Made by a program: the position numbers and the translations under genes. Of a stretch of DNA of 28,269 nucleotides, positions 876 through 27,671 are shown one piece after another. This DNA is from a virus (taxonomy: Duplodnaviria; Caudoviricetes): positions 1-28,269 of the IMG/VR virus record IMGVR_UViG_3300016471_000119; one strand, written 5' to 3'. The notes under the pieces are model-generated. The model was not told the origin of the DNA. It made no database searches and saw only the letters and a list, made by a program, of their open reading frames with translations. Within the stretch, counting starts at the first letter, position 1. The number at the start of each line of letters is the position of its first letter.

Positions 876-1063
876 TGAAATACGTAAAATACTACAGAAT
901 GTGGCTTGAAGATACAGTAGAGCCACAAGGTGGCACATGGTGCTACATGGGAATGGATGAGAAAGGCTTTTTATGGCAGCTTAACTTTCAATATAAAGAT
1001 ACTGAGCAGGCAGACACCTTAGAACAATACCTCCGGTGGGGCTACAAAATTGAAGAGCTATGA
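875..1063 (+). CDS. Hypothetical protein
   Basis: TAATG coupling upstream and ATGA coupling downstream. Confidence 0.75.
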   Translation: MKYVKYYRMWLEDTVEPQGGTWCYMGMDEKGFLWQLNFQYKDTEQADTLEQYLRWGYKIEEL

Positions 1064-1509
1064 CAAAAGAAGATATGTACGAATGGCATGCCATCCAGAA
1101 CATGGACCTTATGCGGCTTGTTGACAAGTACGACCTCAAGAAGAGAACAAGAGCAAGAAGCTACTGCTACAAGCGTTTTTTTATAGCTCAGTACATGGTC
1201 CGCAAAAGGCACCTTACTGTATTCGTAGCAGGCCACCTGTTAGGTGTTGACCACAGCACTATATCCTATGCCATGAAGATGCATGATACCTGGTGGGAGA
1301 AAGATGCTGTATACATGAATGCTATCTACCCACTACCAGAGCTCATAAGTGGTGAGCATGTGCCTCAAACTTACAGCGTAGACTATGAAGAGGTGGATAT
1401 AGAGGAGTGTGTAGTCAATATACGTGGTAACTTTCCTCCAAAGTTATTAACTAAGTTTGATAAGCCTATGACAGGACCAGAATTAAGTACTATATTTGCT
1501 ATGTCGTAA
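1060..1509 (+). CDS. DNA-binding protein with DnaA domain IV-like helix-turn-helix
   Basis: VAGHLLGVDHSTISYAMK resembles the DnaA C-terminal RDHTTVLHA signature. Confidence 0.6.
   Translation: MTKEDMYEWHAIQNMDLMRLVDKYDLKKRTRARSYCYKRFFIAQYMVRKRHLTVFVAGHLLGVDHSTISYAMKMHDTWWEKDAVYMNAIYPLPELISGEHVPQTYSVDYEEVDIEECVVNIRGNFPPKLLTKFDKPMTGPELSTIFAMS
1491..1498 (+). promoter_or_regulatory. Bacteroidota primary-sigma -7 element (TATATTTG)
   Basis: Matches TAnnTTTG; lies ~30 nt upstream of an intrinsic terminator. Confidence 0.5.
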
Positions 1510-1551
1510 TTTCATATTAGGTTAATACGGGGGTCAACGGACCCCTTTTTT
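1501..1551 (+). ncRNA. Putative ~50-nt small antisense RNA
   Basis: Bounded by TAnnTTTG and a terminator; 5' half complementary to leaders at 27471-27491 and 5200-5220 and to the minus-strand start at 20247. Confidence 0.4.
1529..1551 (+). terminator. Rho-independent terminator
   Basis: GGGGTC-AACG-GACCCC hairpin followed by T6. Confidence 0.85.
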
Positions 1552-5183: not shown

Positions 5184-5191
5184 TATATTTG
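5184..5191 (+). promoter_or_regulatory. Bacteroidota -7 promoter element (TATATTTG) for the recombination operon
   Basis: TAnnTTTG in an AT-rich intergenic gap 23 nt before the ERF start. Confidence 0.7.
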
Positions 5192-5214
5192 TAGAAATTT
5201 TAACTCAATAAATT

Positions 5215-5757
5215 ATGACAACAAGAAAAACAGCTCAAGCTGAAGAGCCTAAACCAGCACCAAAGCCAATGAACATCTATCAAAAGCTGCACCTGGCGAA
5301 GCAGTCCATGGGTAAGGTGATTAAGAACGCCACTAACCCACACCTTAAGCGTAACTATGCTGATATCAATAGTATCATTGATACAGTAGAGCCTATCCTA
5401 CTAGACTGTGGACTGCTACTGATACAGCCAGTGAAGGATGATAAGGTGTATACTATCATCATTGATATTGAAAGTGAAGACACCCTTGAGAGCTTTATGC
5501 CCCTTCCTTTAATCACCGATGCACAGAAGCTTGGTGGAGCCATCACCTACTTCCGCAGGTACACCCTAGTATCTCTTCTATCCTTACAAGCTGTGGATGA
5601 TGATGGGTATGAGGCTTCAAGGCCTTCTAAGAATAAGCCTACCCTGGATGGGGATAGATGGGCTAAGGCACTGGCAGCAGTTAAGGCAGGCAAATTCACA
5701 GCTGAGCAGATAAAAGAGATGTACAACCTAACTCAAGAGCAGGAGGCACAGCTATGA
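5215..5757 (+). CDS. erf: ERF-family single-strand annealing protein
   Basis: KNATNPH...YADINSI and Q-x-LGGAITYFRRYTLVSLLSLQAVDDDG ERF signature. Confidence 0.88.
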   Translation: MTTRKTAQAEEPKPAPKPMNIYQKLHLAKQSMGKVIKNATNPHLKRNYADINSIIDTVEPILLDCGLLLIQPVKDDKVYTIIIDIESEDTLESFMPLPLITDAQKLGGAITYFRRYTLVSLLSLQAVDDDGYEASRPSKNKPTLDGDRWAKALAAVKAGKFTAEQIKEMYNLTQEQEAQL

Positions 5758-6377
5758 AGTTCAGAGCATCACAATTAGGCAAGCTAATGACCTCCTCCAG
5801 GACTAAGGGGGAGGCATTGAGCCAAACAGCTAAGAGCTACATCATTGAGAAAGCTAAGCAGGACTTTTATGGCTACCGGAGTGAGCTCACTAACAAGTAC
5901 GTACTCAAGGGTATTGAGCAAGAGCAGGATAGCATTGATTTGCTTAACCTGGTACGTGTGGAGAACTATGCCAAGGACTGCCCTCCTGCTGAAAATGAAT
6001 GGCTAACTGGTTGCTGTGATATCATCACTGAGGATAGGGTGCTTGATATCAAAACCTCCTGGTCCTTAGATACCTTCCCTGCCACTACCTTTGAGTTCAA
6101 GGATACCTCAGACTATGAATGGCAAGGCAGGGCATATATGTGGCTATACGATAGGCCTATATTTGAGCTGTGCTATGTTATGGTGAGCACTCACCCAGAG
6201 TTCCTGAGCCAATATGACCCCATTGATATACATGAGGTGGACCACATAGACCCTGCTAAGCGTATCACTAGCCTTACCTTTGAGCGTGATACTACACTGG
6301 AGATACAGATGATTGAGAAGCTCACAGCGGCATCTTTATTTTATGACCAAGTATTAACCCAATTAAATAATAAATAA
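5754..6377 (+). CDS. YqaJ/lambda-exonuclease-like PD-(D/E)xK exonuclease
   Basis: FRASQLGKLMT, KGIEQE, GCCDII...LDIKTSW, YEWQGRAYMWL; coupled to ERF. Confidence 0.8.
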   Translation: MKFRASQLGKLMTSSRTKGEALSQTAKSYIIEKAKQDFYGYRSELTNKYVLKGIEQEQDSIDLLNLVRVENYAKDCPPAENEWLTGCCDIITEDRVLDIKTSWSLDTFPATTFEFKDTSDYEWQGRAYMWLYDRPIFELCYVMVSTHPEFLSQYDPIDIHEVDHIDPAKRITSLTFERDTTLEIQMIEKLTAASLFYDQVLTQLNNK

Positions 6378-6921: not shown

Positions 6922-7243
6922 GTTTAAAGGAGAGGTGGTGTTCGTTACCCCTACAAAGTCAGTATCTGACAAGTTTAAGAAGAGAGACATCACCCTCAAA
7001 TCTGAAGGTGAGTATCCACAGTACGTAACATTTGAGCTAACACAGGATAAGTGTGACCTAGCCAACAACCTCAAGGCAGGTGATGTGGTGGAGCTCAAGT
7101 ACAACCTACGTGGCCGGAAGTGGGAGGCTCAGGATGGTACCATTAAGTACTTCAACACCATTGAAGCATGGAGCATGACTTTATCTAGTGGTGGAAAACA
7201 AGTTGATAAAAATAATGAGGACTCTGACGATCTACCTTTCTGA
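6914..7243 (+). CDS. DUF3127 family protein (putative OB-fold ssDNA-binding protein)
   Basis: FKKRD...EYPQYVTFELTQDKCD...YNLRGRKW...YFNTIEAW and acidic DDLPF tail. Confidence 0.85.
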   Translation: MSEFKGEVVFVTPTKSVSDKFKKRDITLKSEGEYPQYVTFELTQDKCDLANNLKAGDVVELKYNLRGRKWEAQDGTIKYFNTIEAWSMTLSSGGKQVDKNNEDSDDLPF

Positions 7244-7469
7244 GGGTGAGACACTGAGCCAATGGGCTGTAAAGCAAGCCAATAGCATGCTAAATGATAG
7301 GTACCGGCTAGTACACCTTGCCCTGGATATGAAGGCACCATACCATACTGTTCGTAGGTTTGTAGCAGGTGAGAACGTGGCACTAGAGATACAGGATAAA
7401 TTTATTTCGCTATATTTGAAGCATGTATACTCTGCTCATCCTAATACCTATAGCGTGGTGGCTCACTGA
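7215..7469 (+). CDS. Hypothetical protein, possible HTH
   Basis: LVHLALDMKAPYHTVRRFVAGE resembles an XRE-type HTH; ATG at 7215. Confidence 0.6.
   Translation: MRTLTIYLSEGETLSQWAVKQANSMLNDRYRLVHLALDMKAPYHTVRRFVAGENVALEIQDKFISLYLKHVYSAHPNTYSVVAH
7411..7418 (+). promoter_or_regulatory. Bacteroidota -7 promoter element (TATATTTG) for the block ending in the sigma-like gene
   Basis: TAnnTTTG 4 nt before ATG 7423. Confidence 0.5.
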
Positions 7470-7650: not shown

Positions 7651-7847
7651 ATAGAGTACTATCTCTACCGGATACCCTCAAGTATACTAAGCATTCACTT
7701 GCTGAGCTGCTCAAGATACGTATTAAGTATGAAGGTAAGCAACCCCAGGAGTGCTTCTGTGCTTCTGTGAGACGCAAGGTATGGTTCAAAGAGTTTACAC
7801 TATGGTATGAAGGCTATCTTAGATCAGTTGGTATCGAGTCAGTATAG
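7596..7847 (+). CDS. Hypothetical protein (start uncertain)
   Basis: Fills the gap between neighbours; ECFCASVRRKVW motif. Confidence 0.6.
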   Translation: MSGSSIGLPVEQSDSQVVDRVLSLPDTLKYTKHSLAELLKIRIKYEGKQPQECFCASVRRKVWFKEFTLWYEGYLRSVGIESV

Positions 7848-8331
7848 TGAGCTAGAAGCCTATACTAATTACCTACTGAGCAGGCTAGGCAGTCAATTAG
7901 ACCCCACTACTATCATCAGCAACAGCTATCTGCACTGTGTTAACATTGAATGCACTGATCTAGATACCATGAAGTCCTACATGCTTAATACTATCAAGAA
8001 GCAGATACTCTGGTCAAGTAGTCAAAGCAATAAAGAGGAGCGTGTTAACAGCTCTGATGATGAGGTAGAGCAGATAGATGATACCACTGACTTAGATATG
8101 AAGATACTAGAGGAGAAAGCATACCAACGCAATAAGGCTTTCATTGAAATATACCGCTCCAGGTGCCATGATAGGGTATCTCAGATAGTACTCAGTGCCT
8201 ACATTGATAAAGGATACAATACAGCTAGAGCAATGGCTAAGTACTTCGACATACCGGTGACCTCAGCACACTACCTTATAGCAGATATTAAACAAAATCT
8301 CCGTGAAATACAATATAAGTATGAGAACTAG
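7807..8331 (+). CDS. Putative phage-encoded ECF-like sigma factor / late transcription factor
   Basis: 174 aa; region-2-like N-half (YSELEAYTNYLL...IISNSYL...KSYMLNTIKKQ), acidic linker, region-4-like HTH (GYNTARAMAKYFDIPVTSAHYLIADIKQNLR); last gene before the late region. Confidence 0.6.
   Translation: MKAILDQLVSSQYSELEAYTNYLLSRLGSQLDPTTIISNSYLHCVNIECTDLDTMKSYMLNTIKKQILWSSSQSNKEERVNSSDDEVEQIDDTTDLDMKILEEKAYQRNKAFIEIYRSRCHDRVSQIVLSAYIDKGYNTARAMAKYFDIPVTSAHYLIADIKQNLREIQYKYEN
8289..8317 (+). promoter_or_regulatory. Putative phage late promoter 1
   Basis: TAAACA-N15-ACAATATA-AGT-ATG(8321). Confidence 0.75.
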
Positions 8332-18607: not shown

Positions 18608-19043
18608 TGATGGTAATTTCAATGTGCTATATCCTACACGTAGGAAAATGGCAGCAATGCTTAAGCGCATCATTGTAAGCAAAGGTCTAGTACAGGAGGG
18701 CACCCTGGTAGACTCAGTACGTATCAATGCCAGGATAACAGGCTTTGCCAAGCTAGAGATAGAAATCATAGCTATGTACTACTTCATATTCTTAAACAAT
18801 GGAGCGTATCTATGGAATGGTGGGGTGATACCACCTTACGATATAGTCAGTGACTTTACCTATGAGATGAATAGCAGTGGACTTACTGCAGAAATATACA
18901 GGCAGTATACTGAATGGTTAACTAAGACCTACCCACTAGTTAAGGCAGTGGAGGTACTAGAGAAAAATCAAAAGATAGTATACACATTCTTACCTATAGA
19001 TGCACCTGCAGACTTCACTGTTGGTACTCCATTAGATGTCTAG
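18591..19043 (+). CDS. Putative neck/tail-completion protein (HK97 gp10-like)
   Basis: LVQEGTLVDSV...MYYFIFLNNG resembles the vdTG.L..Si...Y..fve.G motif. Confidence 0.5.
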   Translation: MGRYANDGNFNVLYPTRRKMAAMLKRIIVSKGLVQEGTLVDSVRINARITGFAKLEIEIIAMYYFIFLNNGAYLWNGGVIPPYDIVSDFTYEMNSSGLTAEIYRQYTEWLTKTYPLVKAVEVLEKNQKIVYTFLPIDAPADFTVGTPLDV

Positions 19044-19763
19044 CTCTTTTTTCATGCCTAGCATATTGAACACATAGTAAAGGGGTAGCCCTCCTATGGC
19101 ATCAGACTTAGATAGATCAGCATTGCATAGGTTGTATATGAGTAGCTCCCATGACCATTTAGCTGTATTTTTCTCAGGTTCCTCGTTAGGTCCTTCTTCA
19201 TCTTCATAACCCTCCTCTGGTTCCGGTGGTAGGGGGTCCTCAAATAGATTAGTGTAGGTATCAAGGAACTGTTCACGAAATTTAAGAAACTCCTTGATAA
19301 TACCATACACATCAGTAATAGGTAACTCCATTAATAACTCAGCCCTATCCTTGCAGTCATACTCGTATGGCTCCCACACTATTTCACCCCACTCGTTCTC
19401 TTTAGTTTGCCGGTAAAGGATGGCACAGATGTATGGTAAGTTGGTTAAGTAATTGTTAGTAAAAAAATAATCAAGATCAATGTACTCATACAGGCATAGC
19501 TTAGAAAGTGGCTTGAGCTTCATGTTTTTTATCTCATGCTTGTAATTTTTGGATGGCTCAGAGGTAGCCCATTTGCATTCATCCACTAAAGCCTGTAATT
19601 CTTCAATTTCAAGATCATCTACAACAATGTCAGTAAGTATGCTTATTACTTCACTGTTATAGTATATGGTTCCTTCCTCTTTATTAATCTTGTTGATCTC
19701 CACCCACTCCTCCAGAGTTACCTCCTTCCAGCTCTTTGGGAGCTTGCTGCTTAAATTTTTCAC
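19032..19763 (-). CDS. Hypothetical protein, possible tail assembly chaperone (downstream partner)
   Basis: LPKSWKEVTLEEW start, acidic linker, WSWELLIYNL...LPLYYVFNML tail; GTG start inside the upstream gene. Confidence 0.7.
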   Translation of the reverse strand: MKNLSSKLPKSWKEVTLEEWVEINKINKEEGTIYYNSEVISILTDIVVDDLEIEELQALVDECKWATSEPSKNYKHEIKNMKLKPLSKLCLYEYIDLDYFFTNNYLTNLPYICAILYRQTKENEWGEIVWEPYEYDCKDRAELLMELPITDVYGIIKEFLKFREQFLDTYTNLFEDPLPPEPEEGYEDEEGPNEEPEKNTAKWSWELLIYNLCNADLSKSDAIGGLPLYYVFNMLGMKKELDI

Positions 19764-20247
19764 CGATATATGTTATGTAAGGTATAGCAATAGATGCAGG
19801 CTGCTTAGATATCCATTTTGCTTTAAGTTTAAGATGTGCATCTGCATAGTGTTCTACTTTAGTAAGATCTTCACGTTTGAAAAATACAGCTAATATCATT
19901 GACAAATAACCTTTATCTTTAGCTAGTGAATACTTCTCAATCAGCTTAGTATCTTTTACTGTCAACTTCAATTTAGCGTTATAGGTATAACCTTCATGCT
20001 CAAGAGTATCTATAAGAGGGTACTCTAAATTAGGATGGTCATTAAATTGCCGCACCAAAACTAAAAAATCTTCTACCTCCATGTCATTGAAATCACTTTC
20101 AGGCACTCCTAGATAGTCAAATATCTTAAGGTTTTTTTCAATAGGATCATATTCATTGTTACTACCTATCTCTGTAATGTTTTCAAATTGTTCTACCGTT
20201 AACTCAGTGATCAAGTTAGGTATTTCTTTGTCTAGAATTTTTATCAT
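19684..20247 (-). CDS. Hypothetical protein, possible tail assembly chaperone (upstream partner)
   Basis: ATG 20247 after a TAnnTTTG promoter; IPNLITELTVEQF parallels the neighbour's N-terminus. Confidence 0.7.
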   Translation of the reverse strand: MIKILDKEIPNLITELTVEQFENITEIGSNNEYDPIEKNLKIFDYLGVPESDFNDMEVEDFLVLVRQFNDHPNLEYPLIDTLEHEGYTYNAKLKLTVKDTKLIEKYSLAKDKGYLSMILAVFFKREDLTKVEHYADAHLKLKAKWISKQPASIAIPYITYIGEKFKQQAPKELEGGNSGGVGGDQQD

Positions 20248-25042: not shown

Positions 25043-25530
25043 AAGCACAGCTTATCATACTCATAGCAAGCCTGAAGAGTAGGTGGCCTGTCTACCTATC
25101 CATGGTAAGCACCTTCTTTATGCCTATTTATGGCCTGTTATTCTTGATAGGCTTTACTATTTTGATAGATACCATCACTGGCATCTGGAAGGCACGTAAA
25201 CTAAAGCAACCCATCACCTCACGTAGGCTATCTGCTATCATATCTAAGTTGCTACTGTATGAAATAACTGTGATATTGTTTTACCTTATTGATAAATTTA
25301 TATTAAATGATATCATCCTTACCTTCTTTAGTGTACCTTTGATGCTAACCAAGGTGCTCAGCTTGATACTTGTAAGCATTGAAGTGGTGAGTATCAATGA
25401 GAACTACAAGGCAGTCAAAGGTATAGACCTGTGGCAGAGTGCAAAAAATTTAATATCAAGAGTTAAAGAATTAAAAAAAGATGCCGATGAAATTAGACAT
25501 AACCAAGATAGTACAAGCAAGACTATCTGA
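25039..25530 (+). CDS. Holin (Phage_holin_4_1-like)
   Basis: Several TM segments; IDTITGIWKA...ITSRRL...IEVVSINEN. Confidence 0.85.
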   Translation: MKAQLIILIASLKSRWPVYLSMVSTFFMPIYGLLFLIGFTILIDTITGIWKARKLKQPITSRRLSAIISKLLLYEITVILFYLIDKFILNDIILTFFSVPLMLTKVLSLILVSIEVVSINENYKAVKGIDLWQSAKNLISRVKELKKDADEIRHNQDSTSKTI

Positions 25531-27466: not shown

Positions 27467-27494
27467 TAAGGTATTAACCAATAAAAATTACAAA

Positions 27495-27671
27495 ATGACA
27501 AAAGAAGAAATCTTAGAAACCGTCCTAAACTACTACCAAGAGCTTAATGCTGATTATGAGGAGAACCGTGATGCCTTTGGCTTGAGTGATCCAGACACCC
27601 AGAGAAGCTACACCAAGCTATATGCTGTAGAACAGTTACTTAACCGCTTAAATTTACCTACCAATGACTAA
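27495..27671 (+). CDS. 58-aa hypothetical early protein (not in ORF track)
   Basis: MTKEEILETVLNYYQELNADYEENRDAFG...; first ORF after the promoter, A-rich leader. Confidence 0.75.
   Translation: MTKEEILETVLNYYQELNADYEENRDAFGLSDPDTQRSYTKLYAVEQLLNRLNLPTND

Follow-up and report, generated by a model that had tools for sequence, protein, structure and literature searches.

The locus and its genome

The virus record analysed here, whose whole length of 28,269 nucleotides we call the window, is a complete record of 28.3 kb from a small uncultured phage; the 20 bases at either end are identical, so it was handled as circular. It encodes terminase, portal, tail and lysis functions, a primase-helicase, an ERF protein, an exonuclease and an SSB. 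The host is probably a member of the Bacteroidota, as judged from the TANNTTTG motifs that precede several genes. Relatives of the primase were found on 8 genome contigs in a genome-contig scan, with mixed labels, and the GenBank phage collection held no match to the window at the protein or DNA level. Among the 43 window proteins scanned against PHROGs there was no integrase, CI-type repressor, antirepressor or partition gene. The features relevant to this study are as follows.

1060-1509, plus strand: final gene of the first early operon (ORF, 149 aa)
1491-1498, plus strand: predicted -7 promoter element of the Bacteroidota type, TATATTTG (motif)
1503-1551, plus strand: predicted small RNA of 49 nt, its start deduced from the position of the -12 to -5 element
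1503-1528, plus strand: antisense segment of 26 nt, single-stranded (unpaired in the centroid structure)
1529-1551, plus strand: intrinsic terminator, with a hairpin at 1529-1546 and a T run to 1551
1561-1719: putative replication origin, a repeat-rich gap that separates the primase-helicase gene from the terminator (given for context, outside the RNA)
5184-5191, plus strand: promoter of the ERF-exonuclease operon, also present in most relatives
5200-5219, plus strand: predicted target 2, in the leader (5196-5219) of the gene for the single-strand annealing protein ERF (5215-5757) and including its start codon
27459-27466, plus strand: -7 element of the first early operon promoter, with a TTG 18 nt upstream
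27471-27499, plus strand: predicted target 1, comprising the start codon of the first early gene (27495-27671) and its entire predicted 5' leader

A reading of this DNA from sequence only, made earlier, had described a promoter-like motif followed by a short segment and a terminator, with no ORF. The motif, segment and terminator are all there, but positions 1491-1509 form the end of ORF 1060-1509: its last codons (T-I-F-A-M-S-stop) take in the motif as well as bases 1501-1509, and the predicted RNA shares its first 7 nt with it. The motif overlaps a conserved protein end (x-I/T-F-x), and no -33 TTG accompanies it. In Flavobacterium the promoter element is described as spanning -12 to -5, with a weak -33 element (PMC6847099), and on this basis the RNA start is placed at 1503. 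By the same spacing rule the first early message starts at 27471, which is the exact onset of the pairing described below.

The product of 1060-1509 has a weak similarity to the DnaA helix-turn-helix (Pfam Bac_DnaA_C, E 0.009, 16.5 bits, below the cut-off of 31.5). The gap at 1561-1719 adjoins this gene and resembles an iteron origin, with three direct repeats of an ATGACG-containing 11-mer as well as inverted repeats; similar ATGACG repeats occur in relatives. The phage had been described as having no evident repressor, which holds for repressors of the CI type but less well for the small conserved protein encoded at 7215-7469, whose confident model has a Cro/XRE helix-turn-helix-like fold, albeit by weak matches (E 0.46 and above). 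This protein matched nothing in Pfam or PHROGs. The model makes it a candidate transcription regulator, so that this may be a phage with protein regulators after all. The modelled product of 7807-8331 has fold matches to sigma factors (E 0.004-0.02) and is probably a late-gene activator. Profile searches of both proteins against solved structures gave nothing significant, the fold searches being weak but consistent. By eye, an AATATA-type motif could be seen immediately ahead of a number of late start codons, among them 8321, 10836, 17851 and 20291, and a minus-strand gene pair at 19032-20247, without family matches, has its own host-type promoter amid the structural genes.

Predicted pairing with two early leaders

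The early reading had proposed 20 pairs between bases 1506-1528 and the early leader at 27471-27491, and 11 contiguous pairs with one G-U at the start of the ERF gene (5210-5220). Both matches exist as claimed, the first in blocks of 9+4+7, and at the early leader 3 further pairs reach the start codon; the identity of 5215-5757 as ERF is supported by both Pfam and PHROGs. Binding energies, including opening costs, were calculated for 45 gene starts that we annotated, with 300 dinucleotide shuffles as controls. The early leader (27495) ranks first of the 45 with -13.9 kcal/mol and the ERF leader (5215) second with -11.8 kcal/mol, values which none and 3 of the 300 shuffles, respectively, could equal, so that the comparison with shuffled sequences, put forward earlier as a check, favours the segment at both leaders. 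The best-of-45 value was reached by 7/300 shuffles and the sum of the top two by 3/300.

Other sites fared differently. At the minus-strand start 20247 the 10 proposed pairs (two of them G-U) are present, but the site fails as a target with an energy of -5.4 kcal/mol and no covariation (17/24 permutations). Similarly, GTATTAACC does occur at 6351, but within exonuclease coding sequence, and the following start at 6377 gives -4.6 kcal/mol and 52/120 in the covariation test. With such unremarkable energies and no covariation, neither was retained as a conserved target. The proposal of an RNA antisense to the leaders of host-sigma-driven transcripts is consequently supported for the early and ERF leaders, where shuffles and covariation agree, and falls for these two sites. 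The endolysin start, third in the window with -9.6 kcal/mol and 12 possible pairs at 25487-25498 (one bulge), was also considered; its match is not kept in other types (52/120 permutations) and we regard it as incidental.

Conservation in related phages

Exact-pattern and single-protein scans returned only 2-3 near-identical loci, and the wider set came from primase alignments. The first of these gave 80 loci (the best 80 of 464), of which six that begin at or beside the primase match were left out and 74 were examined. The unit, meaning motif, segment and terminator, lies at the same spot in 73 of the 74 (72 recognised by the unit pattern, and L011 added by hand); in one incomplete locus, L017, the terminator alone is visible. 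Two further scans contributed 154 loci, 20 of them non-duplicate with the unit at this place. The working set comprises 87 sequences including the window, eight duplicate loci being excluded and seven unit-bearing loci of type A (see below) also lying outside it. In most relatives the predicted RNA measures 48-57 nt. The 87 units carry 25 different terminator sequences, each of which folds into a hairpin (-9.4 to -15.6 kcal/mol), although a terminator was among the features by which units were chosen.

Protein coding does not explain why the segment is conserved: it persists in L013 and L052, in which the upstream ORF continues across it, and equally in L029 and L081, in which a shorter upstream ORF stops ahead of the promoter. 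Two versions of the gene corresponding to 1060-1509 exist. The longer one has a conserved C-terminal extension and accompanies the unit and terminator; the shorter, encoding about 120 aa, is found in clades that otherwise have no unit and terminator here.

Matched change of RNA and leaders

By RNA sequence, seven types (A-G) were distinguished, represented by 50, 11, 4, 3, 1, 1 and 17 loci. Pairs of an RNA with the early leaders of its own type have a mean energy of -14.7 kcal/mol, against -9.8 kcal/mol for unmatched pairs (55 loci), and only 3 of 5040 permutations are as good; for the ERF leaders the figures are -12.9 against -9.4 kcal/mol (58 loci) and 2/5040, counts which overstate the certainty because the types are few, uneven and not phylogenetically independent, three of them rest on 1-3 loci, and they were drawn by eye from the RNA. 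When the related types E and F are merged, the result is 1/720 for the early and 1/720 for the ERF leaders. A search of relatives for covariation, also suggested at the outset, has thus revealed RNA types that track their own early and ERF leaders. At the ERF start the matched sequences are as follows.

Type A: CATAATTTT against AAAATTATG
Type B: CATAATTATA against TATAATTATG
L033: GTCATAAGATA against TATCTTATGAC
L081: TGTTAATTG against CAATTAACA

No signal was obtained from 17 control gene-start sets (ten plus seven; best 442/5040 and 14/120) or from the reversed RNA (226/720 and 97/720). The strand-swapped control remained significant (3/720 and 2/720), so an inverted DNA copy would satisfy this test as well as RNA pairing would. 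In 6 of the 7 types more G-U pairs form in the transcribed orientation; the exception is the window's own type, which has no G-U excess (1.0 vs 1.33 per duplex).

Type G matches its ERF leader poorly on average (rank 6/7, and 8/10 in the ten-type test described below). L135 and L139 are exceptions within this type, as an inserted stretch gives their RNA segment 16 pairs with the ERF leader, whereas the usual RNA of their clade matches the early leader only. A primase tree of 30 chosen loci and an ERF tree of 25 disagree with each other, with the RNA types dispersed across each of them, a picture that speaks against simple hitch-hiking. Complementarity to the two leaders, their rank among the gene starts and matched change across phage types are properties of the unit itself, and as a conserved, covarying anti-leader element we consider it real.

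Anti-leader units elsewhere in relatives

The origin-proximal unit is missing from 131 loci, and 46 of these carry a different hairpin-terminated unit, usually 2-3.7 kb ahead of the primase gene, that could pair with the phage's own ERF leader; many of the remaining loci are too short to tell. With ten types in all, none of 200,000 random assignments was as good as the true one, and the cognate leader came first for 7 of 10 RNAs, although this test is partly circular, as the units were first spotted by their match to the ERF leader and then defined by an upstream motif. Across up to ten types, an abundant family of phages, probably of Bacteroidota, keeps a predicted anti-leader RNA that tracks its own two early leaders.

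Several individual loci may be mentioned here. L161 has an alternative promoter-like, terminator-ended unit about 2350 upstream of the primase match, with similar ones in L174, L191, L222 and L091. In the L085-L127 clade the ERF-leader match lies in or beside the hairpin. A weak match to the FopS model (18.1 bits; for FopS, see the last section) was noted at G004:C1:2729-2792, outside the fetched locus L135, and could represent a second anti-leader unit in that genome.

Proposed action and its alternatives

We favour, with a probability of about 0.62, a trans-acting RNA of about 49 nt that has its own host-polymerase promoter, pairs with the early and ERF leaders and blocks the start of translation. 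Transcription from 1503, pairing in the cell and repression are what we infer from the arrangement. The host polymerase would transcribe the RNA from a promoter buried in the last codons of 1060-1509, and the 26-nt segment would then bind the first early message and the ERF message in trans, over the 5' leader and start codon of each. By covering A-rich positions and the start codon it would prevent ribosome loading. According to work on Flavobacterium, it is A-rich positions and the AUG that drive initiation there (PMC6847099). Repression appears likelier than activation, since the pairing covers initiation positions and the early leader is predicted to be unstructured. FopS bound at the head of a polycistron is reported to lower downstream genes as well (PMC11697453); by analogy, whole operons may be damped here.

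The promoters at 1754, 6599 and 7411 had been called near-leaderless, which agrees with their predicted leaders of 2, 3 and 0 nt. The primase-helicase and the operon with the sigma-like gene (predicted leaders 0-3 nt) would accordingly escape the RNA, and the arrangement suggests leaderless messages as an escape route from an RNA repressor. More speculatively, as the RNA builds up it would hold down early and recombination functions without stopping replication or the late genes. As to its role, we prefer that of a timer for the switch from early to late genes; it might exclude relatives, and lysogenic immunity is less likely because neither an integrase nor a CI-type repressor is among the 43 proteins compared with PHROGs. 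A wider scheme, in which one RNA replaces the protein repressor, leaderless genes escape it, and the type-specific pairs provide both a timer and exclusion groups between co-infecting relatives, is put forward tentatively, as a possibility rather than an expectation. The natural matched and mismatched pairs are well suited to a direct reporter test of translational silencing in bacteria that lack Shine-Dalgarno sequences and Hfq.

The same pairing could be exerted by a different molecule, namely the long early message, intact or processed, whose 3' tail would fold back in cis on its own 5' leader and act in trans on the ERF leader, the promoter being incidental or minor. We consider this rather unlikely as the general case, although it has a good deal in its favour: the segment is the 3' end of the operon starting at 27471, the 3' end of icaR provides a precedent (PMC3868564), and attaching 100 nt of upstream sequence leaves the predicted binding about unchanged (-16.6 vs -16.4 kcal/mol for the early and -11.4 vs -12.4 kcal/mol for the ERF leader). 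The idea that the long message might hide the segment, leaving only the short RNA active, was favoured by the prediction with 63 nt of upstream context and not by that with 100 nt, and no conclusion here rests on it. Types C and G, moreover, keep the segment and terminator despite a degraded promoter. The first T of the motif is kept in 0/4 loci of type C, which yet pairs strongly with both leaders, and the full motif in 2/17 of type G. These two types may use the segment as a 3' tail of the early message, and in part so may the window. What speaks for a promoter in the other five types (A, B, D, E and F) is the invariance of synonymous sites: T-ANN-TTT is kept in 66/66 loci with 8 different first-position codons, against a background of TTT in 56/95 Phe codons and T at 33% of four-fold sites. 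In type B the motif ends in A, a variant also found at the ERF promoters of other clades. The motif is retained in L029 and L081, where it lies outside any ORF, the predicted start is a pyrimidine-purine step in 53/87 loci, and other clades have stand-alone units with a promoter-like motif of their own. For the ERF leader, pairing in cis is impossible, as the terminator lies between.

Two further explanations move the function away from the phage's own messages. The RNA might act mainly on messages of the host or on superinfecting relatives, the match to its own leaders being secondary to mimicry of the general Bacteroidota start region. The segment does resemble the published seed consensus of FopS, an RNA whose targets are host messages (PMC11697453), the best genome match of the FopS model falls on the unit in 2 of 5 phage records (21.2 and 15 bits), and the divergence by type would be reminiscent of immunity groups. 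A generic mimic, however, would not track its own two leaders while ignoring 17 other sets of starts, and the lack of an integrase, CI-type repressor and partition gene among the 43 proteins (PHROGs) argues against a stable carrier state; we consider this explanation improbable. Still a little less credible is a feature of the DNA itself, be it an inverted operator, bound by the DnaA-like product of 1060-1509 or the Cro-like one of 7215-7469, a gene-converted inverted copy of a leader, the start of a minus-strand ORF, or a chance match in AT-rich sequence. All three sites lie directly downstream of a promoter, two candidate helix-turn-helix proteins exist, and the strand-swapped control remained significant. 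On the other hand, none of the sites is a palindrome, the bulges in the matches vary in size, and 6/7 types have more G-U pairs in the transcribed orientation. Chance is excluded by the shuffles and covariation. The small minus-strand ORF was rejected, being an unconserved frame of 1-28 codons that opens with ACG in the window and lacks a start in types E and F. A trans-acting repressor RNA is, judging from these comparisons of sequence, most likely what the unit encodes.

Comparison with known systems

Phage small RNAs have been reviewed, mostly from temperate enterobacterial phages, in PMC12197685, where a term search found no mention of Bacteroides or Flavobacterium. None of the papers listed by our literature searches describes such an RNA in Bacteroidota phages. 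In Rfam, no family reached its gathering score in the window, and neither c4 nor CI matched at E up to 10 in 1400-1800. As in the general class of trans-acting, translation-blocking RNAs, the unit has imperfect complementarity to start regions of distant messages together with compensatory change.

The RNA had been compared earlier to P4 CI and P1 c4, a comparison that applies to a phage RNA repressing by base pairing but does not identify the closest analogue, as FopS and GibS are closer and the Rfam search gave no match. The P4 CI RNA represses phage genes by base pairing. The c4 RNA of P1 likewise does so, but it is part of immI, the immunity region of a temperate phage, and is described as silencing the antirepressor operon that encodes it (PMC8198154), whereas the predicted targets here are two distant leaders, and the 43 proteins scanned against PHROGs include no antirepressor or CI.

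OOP of lambda and sar of P22 are transcribed from the strand opposite their target. As in the action proposed here, these short RNAs of phages reduce the expression of early regulatory genes by pairing, being antisense to cII and ant, respectively (PMC12197685). The window unit differs in that its pairing is imperfect and it lies on the sense strand, kilobases away from either target. In the icaR message of S. aureus, a 3' end is likewise complementary to its own translation start (PMC3868564); unlike icaR, the segment in the window is complementary to a second transcript as well, and a conserved promoter motif of its own precedes it.

Closest are FopS (Rfam RF04319) and GibS of B. thetaiotaomicron, which are reported to have a primary-sigma -7 promoter, a single-stranded 5' seed and a Rho-independent terminator hairpin, and to repress in Bacteroides through extended AT-rich pairing across the start region, at the head of polycistronic messages (PMC11697453, PMC7366714). 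The unit resembles them in its predicted single-stranded segment with similar seed words, its terminator hairpin and its predicted pairing with start regions. One FopS copy has been described in a Caudovirales phage, and FopS is characterised by RbpB binding and repression of host PUL messages (PMC11697453). Regarding the promoter, the predicted -7 element is conserved in five of our types and decayed in two. The FopS model gave no match on the window's unit at E up to 10, and 0/5 phage records exceeded its gathering cut-off of 56 bits, the best score being 21.2 bits (the L068 unit). The 1380-1800 stretch had one match in the genome record and the FopS model found no second unit there, so the window has one copy as compared with 12-15 reported for FopS. 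By analogy, the unit would work like FopS and GibS, but it is not a FopS member: its predicted RNA is smaller (about 49 nt as against 65-70 nt), is encoded by a phage and matches that phage's own leaders rather than host glycan-use genes and, unlike FopS and GibS, it diverges in sequence by phage type (PMC11697453, PMC7366714).
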